Assembly: GCF_037042905.1 (NCBI RefSeq)
Contig: NC_087260.1
Coordinates: forward strand, 22,382,001 to 22,446,000
Length of the DNA: 64,000 nucleotides
Source: Lytechinus pictus
Lineage: Eukaryota
Direction of reading: 5' to 3'
Shown here: piece by piece, positions 31,608 through 59,230 of the stretch
How the letters are laid out: every line of letters starts with the position of its first letter
Numbering within the stretch: the first letter of the stretch is position 1
Notes under the pieces: model-generated
What the model saw: only the letters and a program-made list of their open reading frames with translations
Databases searched by the model: none
What the model was told of the DNA's origin: nothing
Position numbers and translations under genes: made by a program

Positions 31608-31701
31608 TTCTTCCTCACTCTCTCGCTCACAGTTCTTCCACCGACCATTAGATATACCGTTGATATCGATCATAAATATCGTCCATATTTTTTATTCAAT
31701 A

Positions 31702-33656: not shown

Positions 33657-33862
33657 GGTAAACCATCTCACCATATTCAATCAACTTTCTCGGTCCCTCT
33701 GGGTTCCATGCTTTCGAAATTCAGCATTAATTAAGAAAATGTATTTACACTGTCTTGTTTAAACAAAATATGCAACTAGAAACAATGTATACATTTTTTG
33801 TCAATAGTTTAATGATTCTTTGTTAGGTGGTTTTATAATTCTGTGTTTATTTAATGATCATT

Positions 33863-34230
33863 ATACCTCTGTAGAAGTTTCAAGGTTCACATTTTATATG
33901 ACCATTAATTCTGTAATTGTGTAAATGGATGACTTGAACATGGAACTTACACAGTTGTTTTATTTCCGTTGACCAAACAAGAGCCATGTGTCCTTAGAAC
34001 CGACAACCACGATTTACATGGTTTCTGTAATAACTGTGAATTTGGCGTAGAAGGGTATTCATAACAACTAGCATTGCACAATATTCTCCAATGCCATTGA
34101 TCATCTGAGTTTCCATTCCATGCTTTCGGAGTCAGCATTAATTTAGAAAATATAAAATAGGCTCCCATTCATTTGTCATACATCTGTAGCCTACTCAGTG
34201 GAGACAAAACCAACATAATTACGTCTGGAT
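33863..34230 (+). repeat. ~370-bp direct repeat, also at ~37870-38240, ~51399-51766, ~55400-55770 and diverged at ~63430-63730
   Basis: Shared tttcaaggttcacatttt...ggatgacttgaac...gtaataactgtgaatttggcgtagaaggg...aattacgtctgga. Confidence 0.85.
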
Positions 34231-35349
34231 GTCACTTGTTTTATTTTCTGCTATGATTCATCTTTGGTTATGATCAACAATTAAAAAAAGGCATGCCACC
34301 TCTCCTTCAAAAAGGGGGGGAGAAAAAAAGGAAGGGGCAATAGGGTGAAATAAATATAATTTTCTTTTTCAAATATTCTGCACATATTTTGTTGAGTAAA
34401 ATACTGCTCTTTTATCGAGAAATATTTTTACACAACCTGTGTTGTGTCACGTTTTACCCAACAACAACTATGTTCTCTTTTTACCCAACATAAATACAAC
34501 AAATTTTACATTCCCATTGTGTCAAATATTCTGCACATTGGTTGAGTAAAATACTGCACGTTTATTGGTCAATATTTTACACAATCTGCCCTGAGTAAAG
34601 TTTTACTCCAATGGCAACCATGTTCCCTTTTACGTAGGTAGGGTGAAATTTTACTCAATATTGAGTAATTATTTTGTAGAGTGTACTATTCGTGCCAAAT
34701 GTATTCAATTATTGTTTATTATATTTTCAAACATCGTTTCACAGAAATATATAACTGTCAAATCTACGATTTATATCATATTTTCTATCATGATATATCA
34801 CAACTGAACAAAAAAGTGTAATCTGAAATGTTTATGTTTAGAAGTAGCAAGCACAAGAAATGTTTTTTCAATTTTTTATTTTTAATTCGTCTAAAATATG
34901 AAATTTAGGGGGGACAAAAGGTCACCTAAATATTTTTCAGCTCCTGATGACAAAGCAATATGATGAAGGGGCGTGACATACTCATTTGTTTGATATAAAA
35001 TTTGTCATGATAGCAAAAATATTTTATAATATACAGTAAATTTTATGATGTTTGACAAGTGTCAACTTTTTTTTAATTTCCTGGGTGTATGTTAACTTCT
35101 AGCCTGAACTGTATATCACAATCGGTAATAGTAAAGTACCGTAGCAATAAAATCATAGATTTTGAAGGAACGTTGCCAAGGAGCAAGCAGTTCCAGCTTT
35201 TATAAATGGGGGGGGGGGGCGAAAATATTTTCATCCGCATTTCCATGTCACGGCCGCCGAAATCTGTTTTTTTTAAGGGTTAGTCCTAACTAAATTTTCA
35301 TTCTAAGAAACAAGATAAGGTATTTTGTGTGACGTGGATATAAGTTACC

Positions 35350-37625
35350 ATGCGAGTGCAAAGCGTGAGCAAAATTTTTTGGATATTTTATATATTTAGA
35401 CCTTAAAATTGAACATTGTGACCACTTTTGTTATCATAAACTAGAGGGGTATCTAACTAAACAATCCATGCATGTGAGCACAAATTGCGAGCTGAAATTT
35501 TTAATATACTGGTCAGCAAAAGATTAGTTGAAGACTGTTCGCAGTGAGCCGTGAAATAATAAAATTTTCACCTATCCAAAAATGAGAGCGCGAAGCGCTA
35601 GCTGAAAAATGTCATATTTTTACCTGAAAGCTCGATGAAGAGGATAGATACATTAACCAAACAATCGTTGCGAGCGCGAAGCGAGAGCTGAAAATTGTGA
35701 TTCCGACCAGAAAACTGGACATTCTTAGCACTTTTTGTAAGACTAATATGTATATAATTAGACAATCCATGCTAGCGCGAGCTAAAACTTTTAAATAAGT
35801 GTTCTGAAAAAGGACATGTTGATTAACTGTTTGCAGTGACTCATTGATAGAATACATTTCCTACTAATCAAATAGAGCAAGCGCAAAGCGCGAGCTGAAA
35901 AAAATATATATTTCGACGAGAAAATTTGACTGTAATCATGAAGAGGATGGATAACATAACCAAATAATTGATGCGAGCGCGAAGCGCGAGCTGAAAATTT
36001 TGATTTCCGACCAGAAAACTTGACATTCTAAGCACTTTTTGCATGAATGGTATGCGTGTATTACAATTCATGACTGTGATCGTTAACCGATACCCTTATA
36101 TATCTGTTCTGGAAAAGGACATATTAATTAACCGTTTGCAGTGACTCATTAATAGAATACATATCTCACTAATCAAATAGAGCGAGGAAAAACTATCAAT
36201 TTTGGATATTGTAAATTGAAAACTAAACATTTTACACGTTTTTACATTAATACAAACTTAGTTTCTGCATCTGTAATTGAACAAGCTGTGTATCTAAAAA
36301 AAAACATATAATGCAAGCGCGAAGCTCGAGCGGAAATTTTCAATATTCTGAGGGAGAATTTAAGCACTGTCCAACATGAAGGAAAAATGTGGAGAGGATA
36401 CATGGATCTAACTATGCGAGCGCGAAGCTTAGCTTTTAATGTAGATTTAGACCTAAATAACAAAACATTTGAAGCGATATAACCGTGATCAGGATGGATA
36501 TTTTAACCAAAAATATATTACTATATGATGCTAGCGCGAACCGTGAGCTGATTTTTCTTTTCGATAAAAAAAATTATGAAAATGGATTACTAAGCCAAAT
36601 AAAAGACATTAGATATCCAATGTAACAATGCGAGCTGATTTTTTTTGTATTAAGACCTGACAGACTTTAAAAAGGCAACACTCTTTTTGCACTTCTTGTA
36701 ATAATGAAAACGAAGGGTATCATGCTCAACAAATTTTGATATTGTGAAACATTTTTCAATAGGTCCAAAGAACAAACTTTGTATCTCAATAGATAATGTG
36801 AGCGCATAGCGCGAGCTGATATTCATACTGACCCTCTAGGGAACCTTTTAAGCGCTGTCCAAGACGTAAGAATATTGTGAAGATGATATGGATCTCACTA
36901 AATGAATGATGCGAAGTGCTAGCCGAAGTTTTTTGCGATTTAGAACTACTAAATTTTTTTTGCGATTTAGAACCGGGTCATTCTAATCACTGTCGGTAAA
37001 AGCGCGTGTGATTTTTTAGTCGATGTATATCATAAAATCGAGACATCTAATCACTGTCTGTAGATGAAGAAGCCCTTGGGAACAGCCATGGATGACCAAA
37101 CATTTACATTCTAATCACTGTCGGTACATGACGCAGTTAGAAAATTCCAGCGTGAACCGACAGTTTATCATTTTCTGACAGGCGTCGATCTCACTAAAAT
37201 AATGAATAATGCGAGCGCGAAGCGCGAGCTGAAAATTTTGGGTGATAGACCTAAAATCGGGACATTCTAATCACTGTCGGTAGATGAAGCCCTTGGAACA
37301 GCCCTTGGTGACCCGACATTTACATTCTAATCACTGTCGGTAAATGAGGCAGTTGGAAAATTCCAGCGTGACCCGACAGTTTATAATTTTTCTGACAGGT
37401 GTCGACCTCACTAAATGAATAATGCGAGCGCGAAGCGCGAGCTGAAATTTTTTGGCAATTTAGGCCTACAACCGGGCCATTTTAATCACTGTCGGTACAA
37501 AGCGTGTGTTCACTTTTTAGGCGATTAAGACCGAAAATCGGTAAATTCTAATCCCTGTCGGTAGATGAAGCCGTTGGAAGAGCCATAGGTGACCCGACAG
37601 TTTATCGTTTTCCGACAGGCTTCGA
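35350..37625. repeat. Degenerate satellite-like array built around GCGAGCGCGAAGCGCGAGCTGAAAA
   Basis: More than 15 variants of the motif at irregular ~60-190 bp spacing. Later units share ttctaatcactgtcggta. Duplicated at ~52880-55160. Confidence 0.8.
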
Positions 37626-39434
37626 TCCAACAGCCCCTGCTTTTCTTTTTCTTTGTCTTTTTCTCTTTCCTTCTTTCTCTTTCTTTTTTCTGTCTTTTTT
37701 CTCTCCTTTCTTTTTTCTTCCTTCTTTTTCCCTTCCTTCTTTTTTCCCTCTCTCCTTTTTTCATTTTTTTCCCGACGGGCGCGCAGATTTACCGACGATA
37801 TCCAGAGTAGTGGGGGGGGGGGGGTGTTGCACCCCACAACCCCCCCCCCCCTTTAGCGACGGTCCTGATTATATCTCTGTCGAAGTTTCAAGGTTCACAT
37901 TTTATATGACCATTATTTAACTGTGTAAATGGATGACTTGAACTTGGAACTTTTTTTTTACACAGTTATTTTATTTCCATTAACTAAACAAGAGCCATAT
38001 GTCCTTAGAACCGATAACCATGATTTACATGGTTTCTGTAATAACTGTGAATTTGGCGTAGAAGGGTATTCACAACAACTAGCATTGCACAATATTCTCC
38101 AATGCCATTGATCATCTGAGTTTCCATTCCATGCTTTCGGAGTCAGCATTAATTTAGAAAATATAAAATAGGCTCCCATTCATTTGTCATACATCTGTAG
38201 CCTACTCAGTGGAGACAAAACCAACATAATTACGTCTGGACGTCCCTCCCTGCCAACACAAGTAGTACATCTGTGCAAAACAAAAGGAGAGCACCAATAG
38301 ACATCTCTACTTTGATCGATGAACAGGCTTAGTCCTACATCATCGCTGGAGTAAAGTAAAGTATTAATTCTCATAAAGACCGTAAAACTAAGCTCTTAAT
38401 CAAGGCAGGATAATGTTTTTTTTTTCATTTAATCATAAAAACTTTCCAACCTATAACTCGATACATATAGTAATAGCATGTATCAAAGAAACGGATATAG
38501 CCTAAATCACTGTGAATGCATGAATATTCTTTGTTAGTTTCATAGAAAGCATGTAGGAATTGAAAAAGGCCTAAAACATGTTCTACAAAAAGAATGTTGC
38601 TTCAGTAATTATTTGATGTGACTCACACAATACATTTTGGGTTGCACCACCATTATTCTGATGGTATTTGAGTTTCAGTGAATCCCGTGTTCATTCCAGT
38701 TATAGTCGCTTCAATCATTAGAGTCACAATGTGTATTATCAATAGTAATTTCATTTCAGATGTGAATTAAAAGGTAAATCATTTGTCAGTCAACATTTTC
38801 TGATTTCATGCAGGCGTACTTTATTTGAAATTAAGAAACAAGGTCTGAATATATAAGCAGTACATTCAGATCTCCTCAAAAGCATTCACCATATTCAACA
38901 GTAATCATTTGGTCAGAATTAAACTTTATGAAGAATTTATCTTAATGCACACTTAAAAAACACTTTCATTCAATTATTATCTAGAACATGCCGCACGGAC
39001 ATATTGGAATCTTCTGACATTGAACTGAATTGAAGTATTCAATAAACCAGGACGAATATCCAGCTGATGGAACTGCACAAGGAGTAAATCAAGTCAACCA
39101 TCAGTACATCTGCAGACATCGATACACATGTCTGTAGGAAAGAAAGACTTCAATTTCATAGGCTACTGAGAAATAACTTATGAAGTGAATCCACTACCTG
39201 AACACATGATTAAGAAACAGTTTGGATCAAGTGACGTTTTTATCTTCATTTTGGAGTTTATCATTAGAACCCCAAACTGATAAACTCTTTTGTGTGTAAT
39301 CTATTGTAATCCAATTTTTTACACGTTATTTCAATCTATTTTAGGTAATCTATTTTCTAAAATATATTGGGTGATTTTTAATCAATACAATTTTTATCTT
39401 TAATCTGAACTGCTATACATTTACAAATGACACC

Positions 39435-40514
39435 ATGGCAAAACTCGTCATTTTGATAAGTTTACTCGTCATTATTCATGTGTATGAAGCCAAAGGAATA
39501 TCCTTAATGCAAGGTCAAGAAGCCAACTTGATTTTCCAATATCCTTGTGATAGTTCAGAAGTTACATTACAACAATCTAACAGACGACCATTTTATAGTT
39601 CAATAGATGGGTCGTCTCTGTCTTTGCCTGCAAATCAGGCTCAGAGATTTGAGGTTAAGAAACTGATTATCAATGCGAGCTGCTCTCTCGATCTTACCAT
39701 AAAGGATCTAATGAGAGATGATCAAGGAACATACATTTTGTTTGTTTACAAGGATAGGGAAATACTCGGTGATCATACACATAGAATTTACCTGAAAGTA
39801 CATTATCCTCCTGAGAAAGCACTTTGTGTTGTGGGGGAAGATTATGGTAGAGGATGGGTAGAGGTAGACTGTACAGCCGATGCTGGAAGTCTATCAGGGA
39901 AGATTGAATGCTATCAAAATGGTTTATGGATGCCTCACTTAACAGACCCTGTTGTGAGAGGTTCTTTATTGAAACAGACTATTCTCATCAGGAAATCACA
40001 GCCAGCGCTTTGTTGCTCTTCTGCTTTTAATGTATATAAATCAAGATGTGAATGTAATGATACTGTCTTGTTTCAAAATGAATATCATGGAAAAGATCCC
40101 TGTTCGAACATACCAATCACAACACAAATATCAACAGATCATACAGACATGGTAACGTTTATAACATCTATGAACTTTACAGACTACCACTTATCAACAT
40201 CCACTTATCCAAAAAAAATGTTCAAAGTTAAAACAGTAATCATAGTTTGTGCTCTTACAACAGCTGTGGTGTTCATATCATTAATATTCACAATTATCCG
40301 TGGTACCTACATGGAACAGAAGAACCGGAATAGTAATGTTGCATCAGAGCATCCATCTGCGTTAACAGATGTTTATACTGACGCTGAAGAATGTATTGAA
40401 CTGAATCCGAAACAGGATATACCCCGTTGCAGCAAGGACCTCAAGAAATTTGCAGACATCCATGATAAAACATTTTATAAACAAAAAGTTGAATATATTG
40501 TCAGGACGATATGA
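39435..40514 (+). CDS. Intronless type I membrane protein: signal peptide, V-like Ig domain, Cys-rich domain, S/T stalk, TM, cytoplasmic tail (copy 1)
   Basis: 359-aa ORF with caccATGG Kozak context. Hydrophobic N-terminus, Ig F-strand motif SLDLTIKDLMRDDQGTY and TM segment VIIVCALTTAVVFISLIFTII. Confidence 0.85.
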   Translation: MAKLVILISLLVIIHVYEAKGISLMQGQEANLIFQYPCDSSEVTLQQSNRRPFYSSIDGSSLSLPANQAQRFEVKKLIINASCSLDLTIKDLMRDDQGTYILFVYKDREILGDHTHRIYLKVHYPPEKALCVVGEDYGRGWVEVDCTADAGSLSGKIECYQNGLWMPHLTDPVVRGSLLKQTILIRKSQPALCCSSAFNVYKSRCECNDTVLFQNEYHGKDPCSNIPITTQISTDHTDMVTFITSMNFTDYHLSTSTYPKKMFKVKTVIIVCALTTAVVFISLIFTIIRGTYMEQKNRNSNVASEHPSALTDVYTDAEECIELNPKQDIPRCSKDLKKFADIHDKTFYKQKVEYIVRTI

Positions 40515-40692
40515 GGAAATATGAAATATATTCTCCTGGTTAATTCATACATAATGAAATTACCAAGTCATCTTCAAGTGATCTGATCAAGTATATGCAC
40601 CTCAAAGAAAGATTAGTATGTAAATATCAGTTCACTTTAGTATTATTACTTATATTTCCACATTCAATTAGTTGTTCTTATTATTTACAAAT

Positions 40693-43038: not shown

Positions 43039-43164
43039 AGTAGTTAGGGGTTAGACCTCATCCTAATTGACCTTTGACCTTTGACCTTTGACCGCATGAC
43101 CTTTGACCCCAACTTCCGGTCACTGTTGACCCCGTGACCCCACCTTCCGGTCAATCATGACCTT

Positions 43165-43996
43165 TGACCTTTGGGTACGCGGTAAACAGGAAATTGGATA
43201 ATGACTCCGCGTGGGGACGCCATCTTAATTGGATAATGAAGCGCGGGGACACGATTTTAATTGGATAATGACTCCGCGTGGGGACGCCATCTTAATTGGA
43301 TAATGAAACGCGGGACGCGATTTTAATTGGATAATGAGGGTCGGCGTGGGGACGCCACGCTTCAACCCGGAAATGATGGGGGTGACGACGTCACCGGCTA
43401 CGCAAGCACCGTGATGTCATCCCAGGGAATTACCCTTTACCCGGTATTGCACCACCGTGGCGCAATCGTCATCGCCACGTATAGGATACGATGCGCAAAA
43501 TAGACGTATGATTTCTATACAGTTAAAAAGTGAAAAGTTATCTTTCTCCGCCTACCAGCAGATATGTCGAGTGCCTCGCGTGACCTTTGGGTACGCGGTA
43601 AACAGGAAATTGGATAATGACTCCGCGTGGGGACGCCATCTTAATTGGATAATGAAGCGCGGGGACACGATTTTAATTGGATAATGACTCCGCGTGGGGA
43701 CGCCATCTTAATTGGATAATGAAACGCGGGACGCGATTTTAATTGGATAATGAGGGTCGGCGTGGGGACGCCACGCTTCAACCCGGAAATGATGGGGGTG
43801 ACGACGTCACCGGCTACGCAAGCACCGTGATGTCATCCCAGGGAATTACCCTTTACCCGGTATTGCACCACCGTGGCGCAATCGTCATCGCCACGTATAG
43901 GATACGATGCGCAAAATAGACGTATGATTTCTATACAGTTAAAAAGTGAAAAGTTATCTTTCTCCGCCTACCAGCAGATATGTCGAGTGCCTCGCG
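43165..43996. repeat. 416-bp tandem duplication inside the left arm (mirrored at ~48002-48833)
   Basis: tgacctttgggtacgcgg...gtgcctcgcg occurs twice. Each unit has five ATTGGATAATGA motifs. Confidence 0.95.
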
Positions 43997-44510
43997 GTTC
44001 ACGAATCGATCGCCCCATGCACGGCCAACGCGCGTCATTGAACTTGGGATATCCTATTCAAGGTGAAAGCCGGCTCTCTCTGCCTCTTATTACAACAATT
44101 ATTGGTAATCCAACGTGTGATTATTATAGTGACATCTCAAGCTCTACTAATTCCAGACTTTTACACATCAAAACTCTCTGACTTTTTCATACTGTTTTGT
44201 TCATACTTTTCATTTAACTCACATGACCTGCCCGGCTCTCTGACTCGCAAAAAGTATACTATATTGAAACCGGTAGATGCCTCCTTTAAATCAACTTCAT
44301 TCATCCGCATTACAGATGGTGATAACATGAAACACTATACAGTAAAGGATGATTCTTTATTATTCACATCATTTATTCTATTCCATTTCAATGTAGATAG
44401 GTTCAGATAGTGTATAAACTGCAGATTTTGATACAAAGGTAAAATAATGTAAGTTATGTTCTCAAATTATGTTGTAATAACAAACTAATTGTTAACTGTT
44501 AATTGTTAAT

Positions 44511-45078
44511 ATGAAAGTGAAGTTCTCGTTTTTCTATTTCTTCGCTTAACTTAATGGATTGTAACACATGTCTATGGATGGCATTCAGAAAATATGAACA
44601 CAATGAACTTCAAACTGTCATTTATGTTGACGGCGTTTTCTTGGATTATTAATATTTGACAAGCTGATGTTTGTGCCTTTAGTTGTAGACTCCATCTTCA
44701 CCCTCCGTTTCTTCTCCACCATCATCATTATCGTCATCGTCACCTTGATACTGGAATAAGCCATCGAATCGTGAACCATGCCTGGCTAACACTCATGAAA
44801 GTGAAGTTCTCGTTTTTCTATTTCTTCGCTTAACTTAATGGATTGTAACACATGTCTATGGATGGCATTCAGAAAATATGAACACAATGAACTTCAAACT
44901 GTCATTTATGTTGACGGCGTTTTCTTGGATTATTAATATTTGACAAGCTGATGTTTGTGCCTTTAGTTGTAGACTCCATCTTCACCCTCCGTTTCTTCTC
45001 CACCATCATCATTATCGTCATCGTCACCTTGATACTGGAATAAGCCATCGAATCGTGAACCATGCCTGGCTAACACTC
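44511..45078. repeat. 284-bp tandem duplication of the ORF 3' end and 3' flank (mirrored at 46920-47487)
   Basis: atgaaagtgaagttctcg...ggctaacactc starts at 44511 and again at 44795. Confidence 0.95.
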
Positions 45079-45613
45079 TCTGTACGGCTTTCCGGAATTC
45101 CATGCCATTCTCTAATCTTTCCGTGAGATCGGACACGATTTCACGATTGATGTCAGCGTCTTCGAGGTACACGTTCTGCTGCAAGAACTGAGAGTAAAGA
45201 TCGAAAAAGATGCGTTTGACTGCCCAGAGTAGTTTCACGTGAGCCTTTGCTTTAGCGTCTTCTTCTTCCATTCCTTCTGAGATGTATTTCTGATATTTTT
45301 CGTCTCTCAAGTCCTCGGTGGTTGTCATGGCTTGCTCTAACCATCCTCGATAAGCGAGGTTGTCTTCAGTTTCTTCCATGTTTGCTGTCATTGACGATTC
45401 GTGTCCATCGCTTTCTGATACGCTCGTTTCGGAATCATCGTTGGATTCTTCAACTCTTTGCATTTGAGAGGATGGGTCGGAGTCTTCATCTTCACTCGTT
45501 TCTTCTCCAGTATCATGCTCGTTTTGTTCATGCCTCTGCATATCATACTTCCTACTAAAGGTTTTATCGCATCGTGAACAAGCGTAACGGTTGGACATAT
45601 CCAACGTATTCAT
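44963..45613 (-). CDS. Single C2H2 zinc finger + acidic region + helical C-terminal domain protein (left-arm copy)
   Basis: MNTLDMSNRYACSRCDKTFSRKYDMQRHEQNEH has CxxC-x12-HxxxxH. It is followed by a D/E/S-rich linker and an amphipathic helical region. Intronless; the open frame extends to 45661. Confidence 0.8.
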   Translation of the reverse strand: MNTLDMSNRYACSRCDKTFSRKYDMQRHEQNEHDTGEETSEDEDSDPSSQMQRVEESNDDSETSVSESDGHESSMTANMEETEDNLAYRGWLEQAMTTTEDLRDEKYQKYISEGMEEEDAKAKAHVKLLWAVKRIFFDLYSQFLQQNVYLEDADINREIVSDLTERLENGMEFRKAVQRVLARHGSRFDGLFQYQGDDDDNDDGGEETEGEDGVYN

Positions 45614-45705
45614 GTTGACTCGATGATTATTTGCTGGGAAATGAAGAAAATTAGCGTTCAACCTTGTAATAATACGTAATCATGAAACGCGCGCGAAGGT
45701 ACTTC

Positions 45706-46292
45706 GATTCTTACGGATTATTACTGATTTTTACGGATTTTTACGGATTTTTACGGATTCTTACGGATTTTTGCGGATTCTTACGGATTCTTACGGATTT
45801 TTACGGATTCTTACGGATTTTTACGGATTCTTACGGATTTTTGCGGATTCTTACGGATTATAGCTTACGGATGTTTACGGATTCTTACGGATTCTTACGG
45901 ATTTTTTACGGATTCTTACGGATCCTTACGGATTCTTACGGATTCTTGCGGATTCCCATGCTGCATGGGTCATTCCAACGTGGATGAACATATTTTCCTT
46001 GAGATTATATGAAAGCATTAATTAATCCGCAAGAATCCGTAAGAATCCGTAAAAATCCGTAAGAATCCGTAAAAAATCCGTAAGAATCCGTAAGAATCCG
46101 TAAAAATCCGTAAGAATCCGTAAACATCCGTAAGCTATAATCCGTAAGAATCCGCAAAAATCCGTAAGAATCCGTAAAAATCCGTAAGAATCCGTAAAAA
46201 TCCGTAAGAATCCGTAAGAATCCGCAAAAATCCGTAAGAATCCGTAAAAATCCGTAAAAATCCGTAAAAATCAGTAATAATCCGTAAGAATC
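45706..46292. repeat. Inverted 10-bp minisatellite (TTACGGATTY)n / (RAATCCGTAA)n flanking the 69-bp central spacer
   Basis: About 25 units left of 45955 and about 27 units right of 46023. Confidence 0.95.
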
Positions 46293-46384
46293 GAAGTACC
46301 TTCGCGCGCGTTTCATGATTACGTATTATTACAAGGTTGAACGTTAATTTTCTTCATTTCCCAGCAAATAATCATCGAGTCAAC

Positions 46385-47035
46385 ATGAATACGTTGGATA
46401 TGTCCAACCGTTACGCTTGTTCACGATGCGATAAAACCTTTAGTAGGAAGTATGATATGCAGAGGCATGAACAAAACGAGCATGATACTGGAGAAGAAAC
46501 GAGTGAAGATGAAGACTCCGACCCATCCTCTCAAATGCAAAGAGTTGAAGAATCCAACGATGATTCCGAAACGAGCGTATCAGAAAGCGATGGACACGAA
46601 TCGTCAATGACAGCAAACATGGAAGAAACTGAAGACAACCTCGCTTATCGAGGATGGTTAGAGCAAGCCATGACAACCACCGAGGACTTGAGAGACGAAA
46701 AATATCAGAAATACATCTCAGAAGGAATGGAAGAAGAAGACGCTAAAGCAAAGGCTCACGTGAAACTACTCTGGGCAGTCAAACGCATCTTTTTCGATCT
46801 TTACTCTCAGTTCTTGCAGCAGAACGTGTACCTCGAAGACGCTGACATCAATCGTGAAATCGTGTCCGATCTCACGGAAAGATTAGAGAATGGCATGGAA
46901 TTCCGGAAAGCCGTACAGAGAGTGTTAGCCAGGCATGGTTCACGATTCGATGGCTTATTCCAGTATCAAGGTGACGATGACGATAATGATGATGGTGGAG
47001 AAGAAACGGAGGGTGAAGATGGAGTCTACAACTAA
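46385..47035 (+). CDS. Single C2H2 zinc finger + acidic region + helical C-terminal domain protein (right-arm copy)
   Basis: Same protein as the left-arm copy from the first ATG (216 aa). The alternative start MSNRY is at 46400. Confidence 0.8.
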   Translation: MNTLDMSNRYACSRCDKTFSRKYDMQRHEQNEHDTGEETSEDEDSDPSSQMQRVEESNDDSETSVSESDGHESSMTANMEETEDNLAYRGWLEQAMTTTEDLRDEKYQKYISEGMEEEDAKAKAHVKLLWAVKRIFFDLYSQFLQQNVYLEDADINREIVSDLTERLENGMEFRKAVQRVLARHGSRFDGLFQYQGDDDDNDDGGEETEGEDGVYN

Positions 47036-49499
47036 AGGCACAAACATCAGCTTGTCAAATATTAATAATCCAAGAAAACGCCGTCAACATAAATGACAGT
47101 TTGAAGTTCATTGTGTTCATATTTTCTGAATGCCATCCATAGACATGTGTTACAATCCATTAAGTTAAGCGAAGAAATAGAAAAACGAGAACTTCACTTT
47201 CATGAGTGTTAGCCAGGCATGGTTCACGATTCGATGGCTTATTCCAGTATCAAGGTGACGATGACGATAATGATGATGGTGGAGAAGAAACGGAGGGTGA
47301 AGATGGAGTCTACAACTAAAGGCACAAACATCAGCTTGTCAAATATTAATAATCCAAGAAAACGCCGTCAACATAAATGACAGTTTGAAGTTCATTGTGT
47401 TCATATTTTCTGAATGCCATCCATAGACATGTGTTACAATCCATTAAGTTAAGCGAAGAAATAGAAAAACGAGAACTTCACTTTCATATTAACAATTAAC
47501 AGTTAACAATTAGTTTGTTATTACAACATAATTTGAGAACATAACTTACATTATTTTACCTTTGTATCAAAATCTGCAGTTTATACACTATCTGAACCTA
47601 TCTACATTGAAATGGAATAGAATAAATGATGTGAATAATAAAGAATCATCCTTTACTGTATAGTGTTTCATGTTATCACCATCTGTAATGCGGATGAATG
47701 AAGTTGATTTAAAGGAGGCATCTACCGGTTTCAATATAGTATACTTTTTGCGAGTCAGAGAGCCGGGCAGGTCATGTGAGTTAAATGAAAAGTATGAACA
47801 AAACAGTATGAAAAAGTCAGAGAGTTTTGATGTGTAAAAGTCTGGAATTAGTAGAGCTTGAGATGTCACTATAATAATCACACGTTGGATTACCAATAAT
47901 TGTTGTAATAAGAGGCAGAGAGAGCCGGCTTTCACCTTGAATAGGATATCCCAAGTTCAATGACGCGCGTTGGCCGTGCATGGGGCGATCGATTCGTGAA
48001 CCGCGAGGCACTCGACATATCTGCTGGTAGGCGGAGAAAGATAACTTTTCACTTTTTAACTGTATAGAAATCATACGTCTATTTTGCGCATCGTATCCTA
48101 TACGTGGCGATGACGATTGCGCCACGGTGGTGCAATACCGGGTAAAGGGTAATTCCCTGGGATGACATCACGGTGCTTGCGTAGCCGGTGACGTCGTCAC
48201 CCCCATCATTTCCGGGTTGAAGCGTGGCGTCCCCACGCCGACCCTCATTATCCAATTAAAATCGCGTCCCGCGTTTCATTATCCAATTAAGATGGCGTCC
48301 CCACGCGGAGTCATTATCCAATTAAAATCGTGTCCCCGCGCTTCATTATCCAATTAAGATGGCGTCCCCACGCGGAGTCATTATCCAATTTCCTGTTTAC
48401 CGCGTACCCAAAGGTCACGCGAGGCACTCGACATATCTGCTGGTAGGCGGAGAAAGATAACTTTTCACTTTTTAACTGTATAGAAATCATACGTCTATTT
48501 TGCGCATCGTATCCTATACGTGGCGATGACGATTGCGCCACGGTGGTGCAATACCGGGTAAAGGGTAATTCCCTGGGATGACATCACGGTGCTTGCGTAG
48601 CCGGTGACGTCGTCACCCCCATCATTTCCGGGTTGAAGCGTGGCGTCCCCACGCCGACCCTCATTATCCAATTAAAATCGCGTCCCGCGTTTCATTATCC
48701 AATTAAGATGGCGTCCCCACGCGGAGTCATTATCCAATTAAAATCGTGTCCCCGCGCTTCATTATCCAATTAAGATGGCGTCCCCACGCGGAGTCATTAT
48801 CCAATTTCCTGTTTACCGCGTACCCAAAGGTCAAAGGTCATGATTGACCGGAAGGTGGGGTCACGGGGTCAACAGTGACCGGAAGTTGGGGTCAAAGGTC
48901 ATGCGGTCAAAGGTCAAAGGTCAATTAGGATGAGGTCTAACCCCTAACTAAAACTTGAAGAGCCCCGACGGGGGGATTTTGCATTGTAAGTCCCCTAATG
49001 GTGGCTGCACGATAGCGAGCCGTCTGTGTATGAGGAGAAATTTAAAAAATAAAAAAATGTTAAAAAACTCCTCGAAACAGACGGCTGCCAGCTGTCTAGC
49101 CCAGGCCATGCCTCACAGCTCACTACTCAGCCTCAGTCTCAGAGTCTGACGCCCAATATGTTTTCCATTCATTTCAACTTCAACAACATGTTTCCATCAA
49201 AGGTCTTTTTTCCCCTTCTAAACTTAACGCTACATAGTCTAACGTTAGGTCTAATTATCCACACGTTCATCTAAAAATCAAATGCAGTCACAGCCACACA
49301 GGTCATCATCAACACGAACCAAAACCGATGGACAAGCCGCCCCGCCGGCCGGGCTGGGACAGGAGACGAGGTCGAGGAAGAGTCAAAACGTACGGTACCA
49401 TCTCGTCAGTAGTTTACAATCTAACGAAGATATCAAATTTAAACAATAAAGCCATGAGATACAGGCTACATATTTCTTAAAATCATATACATGAATTAC

Positions 49500-49560
49500 C
49501 TTGTTGAAGTTCATTGATGCTTTTAGTAAGAACCTCCATATGAAATGCATTTCCAGCCAT
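49500..49560 (-). pseudogene. Orphan duplicate of SYCE1-like exon 1 with its flanks (~49100-49880)
   Basis: The 61 nt are identical to 31547-31607, with an intact ATG and GT donor. Flanks are homologous to, but diverged from, ~31205-32150. No duplicate of exons 2-8 is present. Confidence 0.85.
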
Positions 49561-50756
49561 TTCTTCATCACTCTCTCAACTCCCAGGAGTCCCGCTTTCT
49601 TTTCACCAATACCGGTATGTCTATCGATCATAAACATCGTCCATCGATCGTAATATAATACATGCGCGATATCAAAATTAATCAATCAAACCTCAGGACA
49701 GGGGCGGCGGCGCCACAGGGATGGGGGCAGGGGGCAACCGCCCCAATGATTTTCCAAGTAGTCTAGTTAAATGGGGGGGGGGGGGGCAAAAGAGGAAAGA
49801 TGAATAAAGTAAGAGAAGGAATAATAATTTAAAAATTGAAAGGTCTGAACATGCAGTGCAACTCTTTAAATATCTCCACAATTCATATGAAATCACATAA
49901 GAGTTGTCTTGCCCCCTCCCCATATCAAAATATCCCAGCTCCGCCCTAGCATGTAACATGAATGTTACAAGCCAAATGATGTGTTAATTAGACAGTATTA
50001 ATTTTCTTTATTCCTTAGAAAATATAAAGATACCATTCCATTTTAATATTTGCCCGTGAGACAAAACTATATATTTTATGCTACGTACAGAAGGGGGGGG
50101 GGGGGAAGGGGGGCTTGGAGGTGCTTGTTCCCCTAAAAAAAATAACGACCAAGAAAAAAAGAAGAGAAGAAACCGAAAGAGAAAAGGGTAAAATACTAGG
50201 CCCCCATATTATTTTCTGAAATAGGAACAGGTCTGGTGAAGGGCCTGAGCATTAAACAAGTCAAAAACTTGTTAAATGTTTAGAACTTTGAGTAGGCCTA
50301 AATTCAGGGGCTGAACCAGCTTTCGCCAATAAGGGGGGGGGGCGAGCGAAAAAAATTCACCCATATTTTCCCCTCAAATATGATTTGTGTTTGTTTCTTC
50401 GTAACAGTCACTTCTTTGCTTTATTCTTATAAAACATAGTAATCTCATAAACCACAATTAAATAGTGCGAGCACGAAGCGCGGGCTATTTTTTTGTGTAG
50501 TTTCATGAATCTTGTCCGCATGCTTGCAAAGTTGATGATTCTATTTGTCATTTTTTTACTGATTGACACTGATAGATTAACGATTAGACCAACTGAATCA
50601 TGCACACGCTCTGTTTGCTAGTCAGTCACGTGTATACTCTGCTTTCGTTTGCATTATTTGGAATTGTATTCAAAATGAGACTGTGTCAACATAATGGATG
50701 GGGGAAGGCGACGCCACGGGCGGAAGGGGGGTGGTCAGAGGGCGACCGTCGCGAGT

Positions 50757-51388
50757 TCCAATTAAAATCGTGTCCCCGCGCTTCATTATCCAATTAAGAT
50801 GGCGTCCCCACGCGGAGTCATTATCCAATTTCCTGTTTACCGCGTACCCAAAGGTCACGCGAGGCACTCGACATATCTGCTGGTAGGCGGAGAAAGATAA
50901 CTTTTCACTTTTTAACTGTATAGAAATCATACGTCTATTTTGCGCATCGTATCCTATACGTGGCGATGACGATTGCGCCACGGTGGTGCAATACCGGGTA
51001 AAGGGTAATTCCCTGGGATGACATCACGGTGCTTGCGTAGCCGGTGACGTCGTCACCCCCATCATTTCCGGGTTGAAGCGTGGCGTCCCCACGCCGACCC
51101 TCATTATCCAATTAAAATCGCGTCCCGCGTTTCATTATCCAATTAAGATGGCGTCCCCACGCGGAGTCATTATCCAATTAAAATCGTGTCCCCGCGCTTC
51201 ATTATCCAATTAAGATGGCGTCCCCACGCGGAGTCATTATCCAATTTCCTGTTTACCGCGTACCCAAAGGTCAAAGGTCATGATTGACCGGAAGGTGGGG
51301 TCACGGGGTCAACAGTGACCGGAAGTTGTGGTCAAAGGTCATGCGGTCAAAGGTCAAAGGTCAAAGGTCAATTAGGATGAGGTCTAAC
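50757..51388. mobile_element. Third, truncated copy of the Polinton-like terminus (same orientation as the right arm)
   Basis: Matches ~48317-48941. It ends ggtctaac, 11 nt short of the full terminus, and is fused directly to duplication copy 2. Confidence 0.9.
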
Positions 51389-54300
51389 AATGATCATTAT
51401 ACCTCTGTAGAAGTTTCAAGGTTCACATTTTATATGACCATTAATTCTGTAATTGTGTAAATGGATGACTTGAACATGGAACTTACACAGTTGTTTTATT
51501 TCCGTTGACCAAACAAGAGCCATGTGTCCTTAGAACCGACAACCACGATTTACATGGTTTCTGTAATAACTGTGAATTTGGCGTAGAAGGGTATTCATAA
51601 CAACTAGCATTGCACAATATTCTCCAATGCCATTGATCATCTGAGTTTCCATTCCATGCTTTCGGAGTCAGCATTAATTTAGAAAATATAAAATAGGCTC
51701 CCATTCATTTGTCATACATCTGTAGCCTACTCAGTGGAGACAAAACCAACATAATTACGTCTGGATGTCACTTGTTTTATTTTCTGCTATGATTCATCTT
51801 TGGTTATGATCAACAATTAAAAAAAGGCATGCCACCTCTCCTTCAAAAAGGGGGGGAGAAAAAAAGGAAGGGGCAATAGGGTGAAATAAATATAATTTTC
51901 TTTTTCAAATATTCTGCACATATTTTGTTGAGTAAAATACTGCTCTTTTATCGAGAAATATTTTTACACAACCTGTGTTGTGTCACGTTTTACCCAACAA
52001 CAACTATGTTCTCTTTTTACCCAACATAAATACAACAAATTTTACATTCCCATTGTGTCAAATATTCTGCACATTGGTTGAGTAAAATACTGCACGTTTA
52101 TTGGTCAATATTTTACACAATCTGCCCTGAGTAAAGTTTTACTCCAATGGCAACCATGTTCCCTTTTACGTAGGTAGGGTGAAATTTTACTCAATATTGA
52201 GTAATTATTTTGTAGAGTGTACTATTCGTGCCAAATGTATTCAATTATTGTTTATTATATTTTCAAACATCGTTTCACAGAAATATATAACTGTCAAATC
52301 TACGATTTATATCATATTTTCTATCATGATATATCACAACTGAACAAAAAAGTGTAATCTGAAATGTTTATGTTTAGAAGTAGCAAGCACAAGAAATGTT
52401 TTTTCAATTTTTTATTTTTAATTCGTCTAAAATATGAAATTTAGGGGGGACAAAAGGTCACCTAAATATTTTTCAGCTCCTGATGACAAAGAAATATGAT
52501 GAAGGGGCGTGACATACTCATTTGTTTGATATAAAATTTGTCATGATAGCAAAAATATTTTATAATATACAGTAAATTTTATGATGTTTGACAAGTGTCA
52601 ACTTTTTTTTAATTTCCTGGGTGTATGTTAACTTCTAGCCTGAACTGTATATCACAATCGGTAATAGTAAAGTACCGTAGCAATAAAATCATAGATTTTG
52701 AAGGAACGTTGCCAAGGAGCAAGCAGTTCCAGCTTTTATAAATGGGGGGGGGGCGAAAATATTTTCATCCGCATTTCCATGTCACGGCCGCCGAAATCTG
52801 TTTTTTTTAAGGGTTAGTCCTAACTAAATTTTCATTCTAAGAAACAAGATAAGGTATTTTGTGTGACGTGGATATAAGTTACCATGCGAGTGCAAAGCGT
52901 GAGCAAAATTTTTTGGATATTTTATATATTTAGACCTTAAAATTGAACATTGTGACCACTTTTGTTATCATAAACTAGAGGGGTATCTAACTAAACAATC
53001 CATGCATGTGAGCACAAATTGCGAGCTGAAATTTTTAATATACTGGTCAGCAAAAGATTAGTTGAAGACTGTTCGCAGTGAGCCGTGAAATAATAAAATT
53101 TTCACCTATCCAAAAATGAGAGCGCGAAGCGCTAGCTGAAAAATGTCATATTTTTACCTGAAAGCTCGATGAAGAGGATAGATACATTAACCAAACAATC
53201 GTTGCGAGCGCGAAGCGAGAGCTGAAAATTGTGATTCCGACCAGAAAACTGGACATTCTTAGCACTTTTTGTAAGACTAATATGTATATAATTAGACAAT
53301 CCATGCTAGCGCGAGCTAAAACTTTTAAATAAGTGTTCTGAAAAAGGACATGTTGATTAACTGTTTGCAGTGACTCATTGATAGAATACATTTCCTACTA
53401 ATCAAATAGAGCAAGCGCAAAGCGCGAGCTGAAAAAAATATATATTTCGACGAGAAAATTTGACTGTAATCATGAAGAGGATGGATAACATAACCAAATA
53501 ATTGATGCGAGCGCGAAGCGCGAGCTGAAAATTTTGATTTCCGACCAGAAAACTTGACATTCTAAGCACTTTTTGCATGAATGGTATGCGTGTATTACAA
53601 TTCATGACTGTGATCGTTAACCGATACCCTTATATATCTGTTCTGGAAAAGGACATATTAATTAACCGTTTGCAGTGACTCATTAATAGAATACATATCT
53701 CACTAATCAAATAGAGCGAGGAAAAACTATCAATTTTGGATATTGTAAATTGAAAACTAAACATTTTACACGTTTTTACATTAATACAAACTTAGTTTCT
53801 GCATCTGTAATTGAACAAGCTGTGTATCTAAAAAAAAACATATAATGCAAGCGCGAAGCTCGAGCGGAAATTTTCAATATTCTGAGGGAGAATTTAAGCA
53901 CTGTCCAACATGAAGGAAAAATGTGGAGAGGATACATGGATCTAACTATGCGAGCGCGAAGCTTAGCTTTTAATGTAGATTTAGACCTAAATAACAAAAC
54001 ATTTGAAGCGATATAACCGTGATCAGGATGGATATTTTAACCAAAAATATATTACTATATGATGCTAGCGCGAACCGTGAGCTGATTTTTCTTTTCGATA
54101 AAAAAAATTATGAAAATGGATTACTAAGCCAAATAAAAGACATTAGATATCCAATGTAACAATGCGAGCTGATTTTTTTTGTATTAAGACCTGACAGACT
54201 TTAAAAAGGCAACACTCTTTTTGCACTTCTTGTAATAATGAAAACGAAGGGTATCATGCTCAACAAATTTTGATATTGTGAAACATTTTTCAATAGGTCC

Positions 54301-57300
54301 AAAGAACAAACTTTGTATCTCAATAGATAATGTGAGCGCATAGCGCGAGCTGATATTCATACTGACCCTCTAGGGAACCTTTTAAGCGCTGTCCAAGACG
54401 TAAGAATATTGTGAAGATGATATGGATCTCACTAAATGAATGATGCGAAGTGCTAGCCGAAGTTTTTTGCGATTTAGAACTACTAAATTTTTTTTGCGAT
54501 TTAGAACCGGGTCATTCTAATCACTGTCGGTAAAAGCGCGTGTGATTTTTTAGTCGATGTATATCATAAAATCGAGACATCTAATCACTGTCTGTAGATG
54601 AAGAAGCCCTTGGGAACAGCCATGGATGACCAAACATTTACATTCTAATCACTGTCGGTACATGACGCAGTTAGAAAATTCCAGCGTGAACCGACAGTTT
54701 ATCATTTTCTGACAGGCGTCGATCTCACTAAAATAATGAATAATGCGAGCGCGAAGCGCGAGCTGAAAATTTTGGGTGATAGACCTAAAATCGGGACATT
54801 CTAATCACTGTCGGTAGATGAAGCCCTTGGAACAGCCCTTGGTGACCCGACATTTACATTCTAATCACTGTCGGTAAATGAGGCAGTTGGAAAATTCCAG
54901 CGTGACCCGACAGTTTATAATTTTTCTGACAGGTGTCGACCTCACTAAATGAATAATGCGAGCGCGAAGCGCGAGCTGAAATTTTTTGGCAATTTAGGCC
55001 TACAACCGGGCCATTTTAATCACTGTCGGTACAAAGCGTGTGTTCACTTTTTAGGCGATTAAGACCGAAAATCGGTAAATTCTAATCCCTGTCGGTAGAT
55101 GAAGCCGTTGGAAGAGCCATAGGTGACCCGACAGTTTATCGTTTTCCGACAGGCTTCGATCCAACAGCCCCTGCTTTTCTTTTTCTTTGTCTTTTTCTCT
55201 TTCCTTCTTTCTCTTTCTTTTTTCTGTCTTTTTTCTCTCCTTTCTTTTTTCTTCCTTCCTTTTCCCTTCCTTCTTTTTTCCCTCTCTCCTTTTTTCATTT
55301 TTTTCCCGACGGGCGCGCAGATTTACCGACGATATCCAGAGTAGTGGGGGGGGGGGGGTGTTGCACCCCACAACCCCCCCCCCTTTAGCGACGGTCCTGA
55401 TTATATCTCTGTCGAAGTTTCAAGGTTCACATTTTATATGACCATTATTTAACTGTGTAAATGGATGACTTGAACTTGGAACTTTTTTTTTACACAGTTA
55501 TTTTATTTCCATTAACTAAACAAGAGCCATATGTCCTTAGAACCGATAACCATGATTTACATGGTTTCTGTAATAACTGTGAATTTGGCGTAGAAGGGTA
55601 TTCACAACAACTAGCATTGCACAATATTCTCCAATGCCATTGATCATCTGAGTTTCCATTCCATGCTTTCGGAGTCAGCATTAATTTAGAAAATATAAAA
55701 TAGGCTCCCATTCATTTGTCATACATCTGTAGCCTACTCAGTGGAGACAAAACCAACATAATTACGTCTGGACGTCCCTCCCTGCCAACACAAGTAGTAC
55801 ATCTGTGCAAAACAAAAGGAGAGCACCAATAGACATCTCTACTTTGATCGATGAACAGGCTTAGTCCTACATCATCGCTGGAGTAAAGTAAAGTATTAAT
55901 TCTCATAAAGACCGTAAAACTAATCTCTTAATCAAGGCAGGATAATGTTTTTTTTTTCATTTAATCATAAAAACTTTCCAACCTATAACTCGATACATAT
56001 AGTAATAGCATGTATCAAAGAAACGGATATAGCCTAAATCACTGTGAATGCATGAATATTCTTTGTTAGTTTCATAGAAAGCATGTAGGAATTGAAAAAG
56101 GCCTAAAACATGTTCTACAAAAAGAATGTTGCTTCAGTAATTATTTGATGTGACTCACACAATACATTTTGGGTTGCACCACCATTATTCTGATGGTATT
56201 TGAGTTTCAGTGAATCCCGTGTTCATTCCAGTTATAGTCGCTTCAATCATTAGAGTCACAATGTGTATTATCAATAGTAATTTCATTTCAGATGTGAATT
56301 AAAAGGTAAATCATTTGTCAGTCAACATTTTCTGATTTCATGCAGGCGTACTTTATTTGAAATTAAGAAACAAGGTCTGAATATATAAGCAGTACATTCA
56401 GATCTCCTCAAAAGCATTCACCATATTCAACAGTAATCATTTGGTCAGAATTAAACTTTATGAAGAATTTATCTTAATGCACACTTAAAAAACACTTTCA
56501 TTCAATTATTATCTAGAACATGCCGCACGGACATATTGGAATCTTCTGACATTGAACTGAATTGAAGTATTCAATAAACCAGGACGAATATCCAGCTGAT
56601 GGAACTGCACAAGGAGTAAATCAAGTCAACCATCAGTACATCTGCAGACATCGATACACATGTCTGTAGGAAAGAAAGACTTCAATTTCATAGGCTACTG
56701 AGAAATAACTTATGAAGTGAATCCACTACCTGAACACATGATTAAGAAACAGTTTGGATCAAGTGACGTTTTTATCTTCATTTTGGAGTTTATCATTAGA
56801 ACCCCAAACTGATAAACTCTTTTGTGTGTAATCTATTGTAATCCAATTTTTTACACGTTATTTCAATCTATTTTAGGTAATCTATTTTCTAAAATATATT
56901 GGGTGATTTTTAATCAATACAATTTTTATCTTTAATCTGAACTGCTATACATTTACAAATGACACCATGGCAAAACTCGTCATTTTGATAAGTTTACTCG
57001 TCATTATTCATGTGTATGAAGCCAAAGGAATATCCTTAATGCAAGGTCAAGAAGCCAACTTGATTTTCCAATATCCTTGTGATAGTTCAGAAGTTACATT
57101 ACAACAATCTAACAGACGACCATTTTATAGTTCAATAGATGGGTCGTCTCTGTCTTTGCCTGCAAATCAGGCTCAGAGATTTGAGGTTAAGAAACTGATT
57201 ATCAATGCGAGCTGCTCTCTCGATCTTACCATAAAGGATCTAATGAGAGATGATCAAGGAACATACATTTTGTTTGTTTACAAGGATAGGGAAATACTCG

Positions 57301-59230
57301 GTGATCATACACATAGAATTTACCTGAAAGTACATTATCCTCCTGAGAAAGCACTTTGTGTTGTGGGGGAAGATTATGGTAGAGGATGGGTAGAGGTAGA
57401 CTGTACAGCCGATGCTGGAAGTCTATCAGGGAAGATTGAATGCTATCAAAATGGTTTATGGATGCCTCACTTAACAGACCCTGTTGTGAGAGGTTCTTTA
57501 TTGAAACAGACTATTCTCATCAGGAAATCACAGCCAGCGCTTTGTTGCTCTTCTGCTTTTAATGTATATAAATCAAGATGTGAATGTAATGATACTGTCT
57601 TGTTTCAAAATGAATATCATGGAAAAGATCCCTGTTCGAACATACCAATCACAACACAAATATCAACAGATCATACAGACATGGTAACGTTTATAACATC
57701 TATGAACTTTACAGACTACCACTTATCAACATCCACTTATCAAAAAAAAATGTTCAAAGTTAAAACAGTAATCATAGTTTGTGCTCTTACAACAGCTGTG
57801 GTGGTCATATCATTAATATTCACAATTATCCGTGGTACCTACATGGAACAGAAGAACCGGAATAGTAATGTTGCATCAGAGCATCCATCTGCGTTAACAG
57901 ATGTTTATACTGACGCTGAAGAATGTATTGAACTGAATCCGAAACAGGATATACCCCGTTGCAGCAAGGACCTCAAGAAATTTGCAGACATCCATGATAA
58001 AAAATTTTATAAACAAAAAGTTGAATATATTGTCAGGACGATATGAGGAAATATGATATAATTTTATATTCTCCTGGTTAATTCATACATAATTATATTA
58101 TCAAGTCATTTTCAAGTGATCTGATCAAGTAAATGCATCTCAAAGAAAGATTAGTATGTAAATATCAGTATACTTTACTATTATTGCTTATATTTACACA
58201 TTCAATTAGTTGTTCTTATTATCTACAAATATTGCTTTCGAACACATTAAACATCACAGCTGCAAAATTCTTTACAACATTTTGTATAGAATTTATGCTG
58301 AGTAATTAAGAAAATATGGTAATGATTTAGATAGGAAATCATAACAATCATTACATAGTAGACTAATTACCAATTAAAACTTATCATTTCTAATGAGGTA
58401 AACAAAAATAATACTGTATATTGGATAATCAACAGTATTTGAAAATCAAACAAAGGGCATATTCTATTTGAATAATTTTATACCCATTCTTTTGACTTAA
58501 AAAATGGAACCATTCATTGTTCTGACTTCAGAAAAAGCAATGTTTGCCTTGAACCATGGACCCTACCACAATGCTTGAGAAGTGCAATCCAGCTGCGTGA
58601 TATACGGCAGGGAGTAACCCATGCCCCGTTTGATCAAAATGACAATGTGCAGTTGGAATGTCTGGCAAATAATACATCATATCATATTATATTGGTTGGT
58701 TGGTTTCGTCATTTTCATCCCGGGTTTTCACCATTGTAAATAAATTAATATATCAGTAATCATGATAGAGGGTCACTTTGATAGAAAGAGGCAATTTCGA
58801 ATTACTAAAACATGTCAAAATTCATTGTTTTGGTACATGACCTGTATGATTATGTATGTCACACACATTTTTTGATAGATTTAATTGATTTAGAGAAAAT
58901 GTATCTTGAAGAACAGAGACATTCCCGTCACAATGAGTGATTTTTAAACACATTTTCTGAATATGACGAGTTGTATCGCATAATGTATTACAGACTTGCT
59001 GTGACCTATATACGATACGATGACAGATTTGTATGTTACATGTTTTATTTTTGTACTGGAAATATCATGATGAGCTTCTATATCTGTTATTTGTTACATA
59101 CATTCAGTGTATTTGTTTACACCATGTATTCAATGAAAATATTTGTATTATTTTGTGAAATGTTTTAATATTCATTGGGAATATTATTATGAGCTTCCTT
59201 ATGTGTTGCTGACTTGCAGTAGATATGTTT
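51389..59230 (+). repeat. Segmental duplication, copy 2 (partner 33853-43038)
   Basis: Begins aatgatcattatacc, which equals 33853. It lacks the MITE dimer and the palindromic element. Confidence 0.95.
56967..58046 (+). CDS. Intronless Ig-domain type I membrane protein (copy 2)
   Basis: 359 aa. It differs from copy 1 at three residues (TYP>TYQ, VVF>VVV, DKT>DKK). Confidence 0.85.
   Translation: MAKLVILISLLVIIHVYEAKGISLMQGQEANLIFQYPCDSSEVTLQQSNRRPFYSSIDGSSLSLPANQAQRFEVKKLIINASCSLDLTIKDLMRDDQGTYILFVYKDREILGDHTHRIYLKVHYPPEKALCVVGEDYGRGWVEVDCTADAGSLSGKIECYQNGLWMPHLTDPVVRGSLLKQTILIRKSQPALCCSSAFNVYKSRCECNDTVLFQNEYHGKDPCSNIPITTQISTDHTDMVTFITSMNFTDYHLSTSTYQKKMFKVKTVIIVCALTTAVVVISLIFTIIRGTYMEQKNRNSNVASEHPSALTDVYTDAEECIELNPKQDIPRCSKDLKKFADIHDKKFYKQKVEYIVRTI

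Follow-up and report, generated by a model that had tools for sequence, protein, structure and literature searches.

A palindromic, Polinton-ended family of Lytechinus pictus that carries its own zinc-finger gene and is very probably mobilised by full-length Polintons

Polintons, or Mavericks, include non-autonomous forms, and Repbase holds entries for such elements other than Polinton-N1A_NV. In the literature, Polinton-N1A_NV is described with a capsid gene (PMC11296320), an autonomous Polinton by definition encodes a polymerase and an integrase (PMC5499653, PMC10748475), and Mavericks have the end motif (AGT)2..(ACT)2 and a 6-bp target-site duplication (TSD) (PMC8097293). For adenovirus and PRD1, a panhandle model explains how end homology is restored, with direct evidence lacking (PMC11886824), and for the Polinton-like viruses (PLVs) associated with entomopoxviruses, the replacement of terminal inverted repeats (TIRs) between elements has been proposed (PMC11296320). 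Here, we analyzed a 64,000-nucleotide stretch of the sea urchin Lytechinus pictus (assembly GCF_037042905.1, contig NC_087260.1, positions 22,382,001 to 22,446,000 of the forward strand; hereafter the window), which contains a palindromic element at window positions 43039 to 48951. It was found that this palindrome is a member of a multi-copy, non-autonomous mobile family, which we call family A. Sequence comparison makes it highly probable that the family combines Polinton ends with a selected zinc-finger gene of its own and is served in trans by the polymerase and integrase of 17-kb Polintons.

The features of the window copy are listed below, by window position.

43039..48951, no strand: whole palindromic element, a family A satellite copy with the right end 2 nt short
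43039..43357, plus strand: left terminus, AGTAGT with subterminal 7-bp and 35/67-bp repeats, the one part in common with the 17-kb helper Polinton
43165..43996, no strand: 416-bp tandem duplication, mirrored at 48002-48833, in 1 of 37 copies (window copy only)
44511..45078, no strand: 284-bp tandem duplication (end of the open reading frame and 3′ flank), mirrored at 46920-47487, in 1 of 37 copies (window copy only)
44963..45613, minus strand: 216-aa open reading frame (ORF) with one C2H2 finger, an acidic linker, a conserved helical domain, and an acidic tail
45706..45955, no strand: left array, upstream of the gene, of 10-bp units that contain TACGGAT, a predicted candidate binding site
45956..46023, no strand: non-palindromic core, in 30 of 37 copies, in either orientation
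46024..46292, no strand: right array of 10-bp units, two units more than the left array
46385..47035, plus strand: second zinc-finger ORF, identical to the first
48633..48951, minus strand: right terminal region, without the last 2 nt and one 7-bp unit, with no TSD after it

Self-alignment of the window placed the arms at 43039/43041-45955 and 46024-48951 around a core of 68-69 bp, in agreement with a preliminary description of this DNA that gave two inverted arms of ~2.9 kb and a spacer of 69 bp. The three arm differences listed in that description are all real, namely one extra 7-bp unit at 43067-43073, a single-nucleotide polymorphism at 45654/46344 upstream of the ATG, and two additional 10-bp units in the right array; two more mismatches were found within the arrays, at 45924-45925. 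The ORF list and Pfam likewise agree with the description in that each arm has one intact zinc-finger ORF directed outward, the two being identical and each containing one C2H2 finger (Pfam zf-C2H2, E 9e-5, weaker than the curated cut-off). The ORF list contains nothing longer than 216 aa inside the element, the other ORFs being two of 101-103 aa that overlie the repeat arrays, and Pfam returned zinc-finger matches only, with no protein-primed PolB and no retroviral-like integrase, as had been stated from the sequence. No capsid, ATPase, or protease ORF was found in the window copy, and no ORF of the size or family of an SF1 helicase-pDNAP fusion. The claim of Polinton-type ends is supported, with the correction that only the left AGTAGT end is complete; the right end is without its last 2 nt, and this copy has no TSD. 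Absent from that description are the mirrored 416-bp and 284-bp duplications, a further end fragment of 632 bp (the third), and a duplication of 6.8 kb of host DNA.

The 812-Mb genome was searched for relatives of this element. The ORF gave 107 full-length matches of 94-100% identity among the best 150 of 332 candidates, with stops in 7 of the 107, and a 20-nt pattern of the end was matched exactly 56 times in forward and 43 times in reverse orientation, relative to 0 for the control. We delimited 36 further copies of 2.5-7.4 kb, picked by end or ORF matches (37 copies including that of the window); left out were L017, L055, L067, and L068, which have no end pair, and the cluster L024-L028. 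An exact 6-bp TSD was present in 32 of the 36 other copies, compared to 3 of 1260 cross-paired flanks used as a control, with mismatches in L013, L041, L045 (inner end), and L058; palindromic copies with 6-bp TSDs elsewhere, which the preliminary description had proposed to look for, therefore exist in number. All 36 other delimited copies, a set chosen in part by the motif itself, have AG..CT termini with the (AGT)2 motif. The ~69-bp core recurs in both orientations, and 27 of the 37 copies have two full-length genes. The first 30 nt exist in 22 variants among the 37 copies, and the two ends of a copy agree over 36 nt in 34 of 37. These 22 variants are assembled from reshuffled short modules, though the ORF is nearly invariant in many of the same copies. 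The gene is also covered, at 90% identity or above, by contigs from two DNA runs labelled as other organisms (X9, X11), and none of the sequencing runs listed as containing the sequence was recorded as RNA. A 47-kb cluster (L024-L028, G000:C17:8134560-8181441) consists of nested and tandem family A copies with ~20 gene and 15 end matches, and L068 (G000:C8:34722000-34731999) is a gene-less array of family A end fragments. Three database gene models (P0001, P0012, P0015), which have duplicated or host-fused ORF pieces or a dentin-matrix-like name, are probably annotation chimeras.

Full-length Polintons with the same ends were found in this genome. Three end pairs (C21, C17, and C6), 16-17 kb apart and with 6-bp TSDs, enclose matches to the polymerase pPolB, and they are 82-89% identical to the arm over the first ~320 bp (to position 347 in one helper end); the homology ends at ~320-350 bp, with no match further inward. 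In the C21 helper, Pfam identified pPolB, an rve integrase, an A32 ATPase, and PC4, and its 445-aa and 177-aa ORFs, neither of which has a Pfam match, are presumably capsid-like and protease-like. The helper polymerase matches are spread over several frames, owing to introns or breaks. These elements are the autonomous partners with the same end that the preliminary description had suggested might exist, and their matching ends support its proposal of dependence on a helper in trans. Over 36 nt, the ends of C21 and one end of C6 match those of the satellites L050 and L058 exactly. Because helper ends are identical to those of particular satellites, and because 22 variants exist of which both ends of a copy generally agree, we infer that terminal sequence is exchanged between helpers and satellites on an ongoing basis. 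One satellite (L023) and one helper (L033-L035) each have two unlike terminal variants with an intact 6-bp TSD, which suggests that they are recombinant molecules. The helper Polintons also have a PC4-like gene just inside one TIR (L029:1341-2036), with weak tblastn matches in two other helper lineages.

The zinc-finger gene was present in 0 of 9 helper-type loci, which represent four Polinton lineages: with a helical-domain profile, the best score there was 7.1 bits, compared to 150-162 bits for members of the family. This absence rules against a simple deletion derivative of the helper, and the earlier suggestion of an internally deleted element is not supported. Using a distant homologue as query, in genome searches that score the best candidates only, we found further gene loci, and of the 16 fetched, 15 lie in long inverted repeats (the exception is L098); matches to core or helper proteins were found near 0 of the 16 within the 10 kb fetched. 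The homologues are 50-100% identical; the long-armed elements in which they occur have termini of at least seven types, every one of them AG..CT, and a 6-bp TSD was found in 16 of 18 delimited elements of these other families. Families A, B2, D, E, and F have two divergent genes, family B1 has two convergent genes, and C, C2, and one E element have a single central gene between TIRs of 1.4-2.3 kb. The idea of a one-off snap-back product that kept a helper regulator, also raised in the preliminary description, is not supported either, since the gene belongs to an old, selected family situated between several unrelated termini.

Helper-like ends were found for several of these families. The B2 and C ends are 94-96% identical to those of 17-kb Polintons over 377-961 bp, the C2 ends are 78% identical over 232 bp to a third Polinton locus (partly fetched), and the B1 ends match a polymerase-only element. 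B1 and B2 do not differ in any of 137 codons and are 98.6-99.6% identical over 1.8-1.9 kb; we read this pair as a recent change of termini, because the gene is nearly identical yet the ends and the gene orientation differ. The core and promoter of family A had no match in the other families or in the helpers fetched. In the gene tree, A groups with B and C groups with C2, and the helper polymerase identities pair likewise (51% and 63% vs 43-47%), which is weakly suggestive of co-divergence of satellite and helper, as four pairs give one of three possible quartets. In a related observation, L069-L070 (G000:C19:4647614-4662238; relative L071-L072, C29) is a 14.6-kb element with 3446-bp, 100% identical TIRs and a 6-bp TSD. 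One of its ORFs encodes multiple C2H2 fingers, and a frame of 1340 codons has weak similarity to pPolB (27% over 126 aa); it has no integrase, capsid, or ATPase match, and its first 813 bp are common to family B1. At G000:C15:2051527-2099092, the B1 terminus is matched 20 times within 48 kb, always on the same strand.

Homologues are widespread among metagenomic proteins, many of the 3128 matches being merely zinc-finger arrays, and several of them branch among the families of the L. pictus genome. There were 0 relatives in viral contigs from 517 pattern matches and 1 relative in 455 candidate metagenome contigs (1.4 kb long, with no ends visible), and cluster look-ups of 20 homologues gave neither taxa nor informative names.

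The ratio of nonsynonymous to synonymous change (dN/dS) between families is 0.09-0.28 over 137-138 codons, and 54 of 61 full-length genes are intact; as judged from these codon comparisons, the gene is under purifying selection between families. Within family A, the corresponding polymorphism ratio (pN/pS) was 0.43 for variants common to several elements (20 nonsynonymous, 11 synonymous) and 0.62-1.76 in three classes of private variants, with small counts.

The private single-nucleotide variants (SNVs) of a copy were frequently found in both of its arms: the numbers present in both arms and in one arm were 18:12 in the ORF and 49:32 in the 513-bp flank, and in two copies a stop and a start loss are mirrored in both arms. 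As the mirrored private variants would each have arisen in one arm, the arms are, on this evidence, copied onto each other. A duplicated-insertion pair (L016/L017) has no informative SNVs.

The structural model of the protein (pLDDT 61) shows the finger, an acidic linker that is disordered, and a helical region predicted with confidence. No clear fold match was found for the helical domain (best BFVD E 0.012, best PDB Z 7.1), the ESM Atlas had no usable match for it, and a homologue query there led to zinc-finger or unnamed clusters only. Among the parsable fingers of 45 aligned homologues, helix position 6 is Arg in 29 of 29 and position −1 is Arg in 26 of 29, which suggests DNA binding. Under the zinc-finger recognition code, the R-D-R residues of the finger predict a GCG target. 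GCG is enriched in the ends of family A and helper A; as a promoter target it fails. Upstream of the gene, 7 of 8 promoters have an excess of the tetramer ACGG relative to dinucleotide shuffles (p<0.03, uncorrected), and the TACGGAT unit was absent from both helper A copies checked. From these data, we tentatively predict that the protein is a self-directed DNA-binding regulator. In a metagenomic homologue (L083:64-1204), position 3 of the finger helix is N rather than D, and an ATGAG repeat array lies upstream (enrichment of GAG, p 0.003); this single case would fit a gene and an array that change together.

A mechanism can be proposed in which the helper pPolB would initiate at either end of the satellite and displace one strand. 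By folding into a hairpin of ~2.9 kb, the displaced strand would restore a duplex origin, and one arm would be copied onto the other by repair or by a template switch, the TIRs being extended inward until the gene is duplicated. We regard this fold-back replication as more likely than not, and a plausible intermediate towards the full palindrome would be L085, in which the TIR reaches the stop codon and its mirror image lies upstream of the promoter. Adenovirus mini-genomes, for comparison, reportedly formed between inverted repeats. Recombination with co-replicating helpers would then swap terminal modules, and sometimes whole termini, and the helper integrase would insert the product with a 6-bp TSD. 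In what is the weakest step, and a doubtful one, the protein would act as a predicted DNA-binding regulator on the ACGG-rich repeats of its own element, favouring its replication or expression. Whether Polintons have a true satellite class seems to us evenly balanced; such a class would be an old lineage of long-armed linear mini-replicons with one conserved zinc-finger gene and several helpers, with change of helper by terminus swap, fold-back palindromes, and possible travel in helper particles.

Several points weigh against this reading. Helper dependence, and mobilisation itself, are deduced from common ends and missing enzymes. No helper was found for family D, and E and F were outside that search; only the best candidates were scored in the genome searches, and the DNA context of the metagenomic homologues comes from one contig. 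With respect to the arms, a copy's own other arm was strictly closest in only 16 of 29 copies (tied in 7, farther in 6), and the mirrored variants look neutral (14 nonsynonymous and 1 stop to 2 synonymous) and could also be explained by chromosomal gene conversion. With respect to the protein, GCG was enriched in none of the 8 promoters, and the ACGG motif was picked after inspection. Finally, two RNA runs, of each of which ~6% was read and for which the tissue is unspecified, yielded 95 and 40 reads on one L012 arm from 8.7 and 8.3 million records, on both strands. Over the ORF, the depth reached ~12 for one strand and 4 for its complement; if the libraries follow the usual convention, the more abundant strand is antisense to the gene. 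The RNA is thus probably mostly antisense, and the terminal-repeat reads, by eye, look like helper-derived RNA. Family A is nearly silent in these two samples.

The arm data bear on a rather unlikely alternative to fold-back copying, which touches the first two steps of the mechanism only: host gene conversion across the chromosomal palindrome would have matched the arms after insertion. Conversion between palindrome arms is known from other genomes, and the mirrored private variants, which include a stop and a start loss, look unselected, so that they could stem either from a decayed parent, one arm of which templated both when the element was mobilised, or from conversion by the host after insertion. 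Unlike arms nevertheless persist unconverted in some copies, namely L023 (20 ORF differences, different ends, intact TSD) and L014 (4.4% between arms), and the C6 helper likewise has unlike ends and a TSD. Because L023 and L014 keep clearly different arms, templating at mobilisation is favoured over host conversion.

With regard to the origin of the gene, family A could have arisen by plain deletion from a Polinton, extinct or unsampled, with the gene in its TIRs, so that selection acted in the parent. This would accord with searches that score best candidates only, with homologues on metagenome contigs of up to 16.7 and 46.9 kb, and with the near-neutral private variants of family A; it is improbable given the gene's absence from nine of nine helper-type loci of four lineages, the lack of core genes at the 16 distant loci within the 10 kb fetched, and the at least seven termini, which would mean many parents, all missing. 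The RNA raises a different possibility, that the palindrome is mainly a source of hairpin RNA that silences the helper and is tolerated by the host. Reads from both strands with an apparent antisense excess agree with this, and a read-through transcript would, from its sequence, fold over ~2.9 kb; we consider it very improbable, as merely ~320 bp are common with the helper and neither protein selection nor the recent near-identical insertions would be explained. The long modular inverted repeats resemble those of foldback elements such as Drosophila FB and sea-urchin TU, and a foldback transposon moved by an unrelated DDE transposase, with coincidentally Polinton-like ends, would share that architecture. 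It is extremely improbable and is largely refuted by the terminal identity with full Polintons (82-89% over ~320 bp and identical terminal 36-mers), a relationship that is repeated for other termini. An assembly or library fold-back artefact, to which the rearranged right junction of the window copy might point, can be given almost no weight: dozens of loci each have a TSD of their own, the core is fixed and occurs in either orientation, there are arm-specific differences, and the gene is covered by contigs of the two DNA runs labelled as other organisms.

The surroundings of the window copy are rearranged, as shown by the following features.

48952..50756, no strand: 1.8 kb of foreign DNA in place of the expected right flank, parts of it 69-79% like 31209-32280
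50757..51388, minus strand: third end fragment, truncated, 632 bp, 99.8% identical to the left arm and abutting the 6.8-kb duplication
51389..58230, plus strand: second copy (99.5%) of the host DNA at 33853-40692, with an Ig-domain ORF, starting exactly at the edge of the end fragment
59027..59229, plus strand: paralogue of the left-flank tandem repeat, uninterrupted by the element (empty-site-like)

The element was inserted in a unit of a ~100-bp host tandem repeat, the remainder of which is missing on the right. Because foreign DNA, an end fragment, and the duplicate replace the expected right flank, the window copy is secondarily rearranged, with its right end cut and its TSD lost; the rearranged junction is either real or an assembly join. 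Host DNA seems to be rearranged by such long palindromes, the present locus being an example. The duplicated ORF encodes a 359-aa Ig-domain membrane protein (39435-40514 and 56967-58046), and past 58230 the two Ig-bearing segments match only 72-78% (BLAST) with large indels, possibly reflecting an older duplication or a haplotype join. Elsewhere in the window, 9306-19248 contains exons of a DM10-domain (EFHC-like) host gene, and 35397-37625 and 52931-55159 contain clusters of dispersed 37-48-nt repeats with a GC-rich core.

Polinton replication and particle formation are still largely inferred from sequences, and a laboratory sea urchin that has matched helpers and many copies of a young satellite opens Polinton replication to observation. 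The family defines a minimal end of ~320 bp, its arm-mirrored mutations and swapped termini would be a record of a replication intermediate, and its gene belongs to an unannotated protein family that automatic annotation has absorbed into host gene models. The literature searched contains no description of gene-bearing palindromic Polinton satellites; Repbase and Dfam were outside that search and may already include the family.

Compared with Polintons/Mavericks, family A is alike in its end motif, 6-bp TSD, TIRs, and terminal sequence common with full elements (PMC10748475, PMC8097293, PMC5499653), and unlike in having no pPolB, integrase, ATPase, protease, or capsid gene, in its size (2.5-7.4 kb vs 13-25 kb), and in its gene-containing arms of ~2.9 kb, whereas the range given for TIRs is 100-1500 bp. 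Since polymerase and integrase are absent, the palindrome family is not an autonomous Polinton. As in non-autonomous Polintons, there are AG..CT ends, a 6-bp TSD, and termini common with an autonomous partner in the same genome, and the family would depend on the enzymes of an autonomous family through common ends; the interior, however, is not deletion-derived from the partner. As in a satellite, the family's own gene is unrelated to the helper and kept by selection (dN/dS 0.09-0.28). We therefore describe it as a non-autonomous Polinton with features of a true satellite, which is real, mobile, and helper-matched, its mobilisation in trans being very likely. In contrast to Polinton-N1A_NV as described (PMC11296320), its sole gene is foreign to the helper, selected, and recurrent with the ends of several helpers. 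In the adenovirus/PRD1 panhandle model, displaced strands likewise fold via inverted repeats (PMC11886824), whereas the satellite is a natural, inherited, integrating family. The mobile end modules of PLVs travel with helicase and recombinase genes in capsid-encoding elements (PMC11296320), whereas in the sea-urchin satellites it is the gene cassette that changes ends. Transpovirons are, similarly, linear, TIR-bounded parasites of a larger DNA virus, about 7 kb in size and with no structural genes; unlike the sea-urchin satellite, which has no replication protein and is integrated in an animal genome, they encode an SF1 helicase-pDNAP fusion and parasitise mimiviruses (PMC5499653). The family would work like a satellite, and by analogy its closest lifestyle would be that of the transpovirons, though without their helicase.

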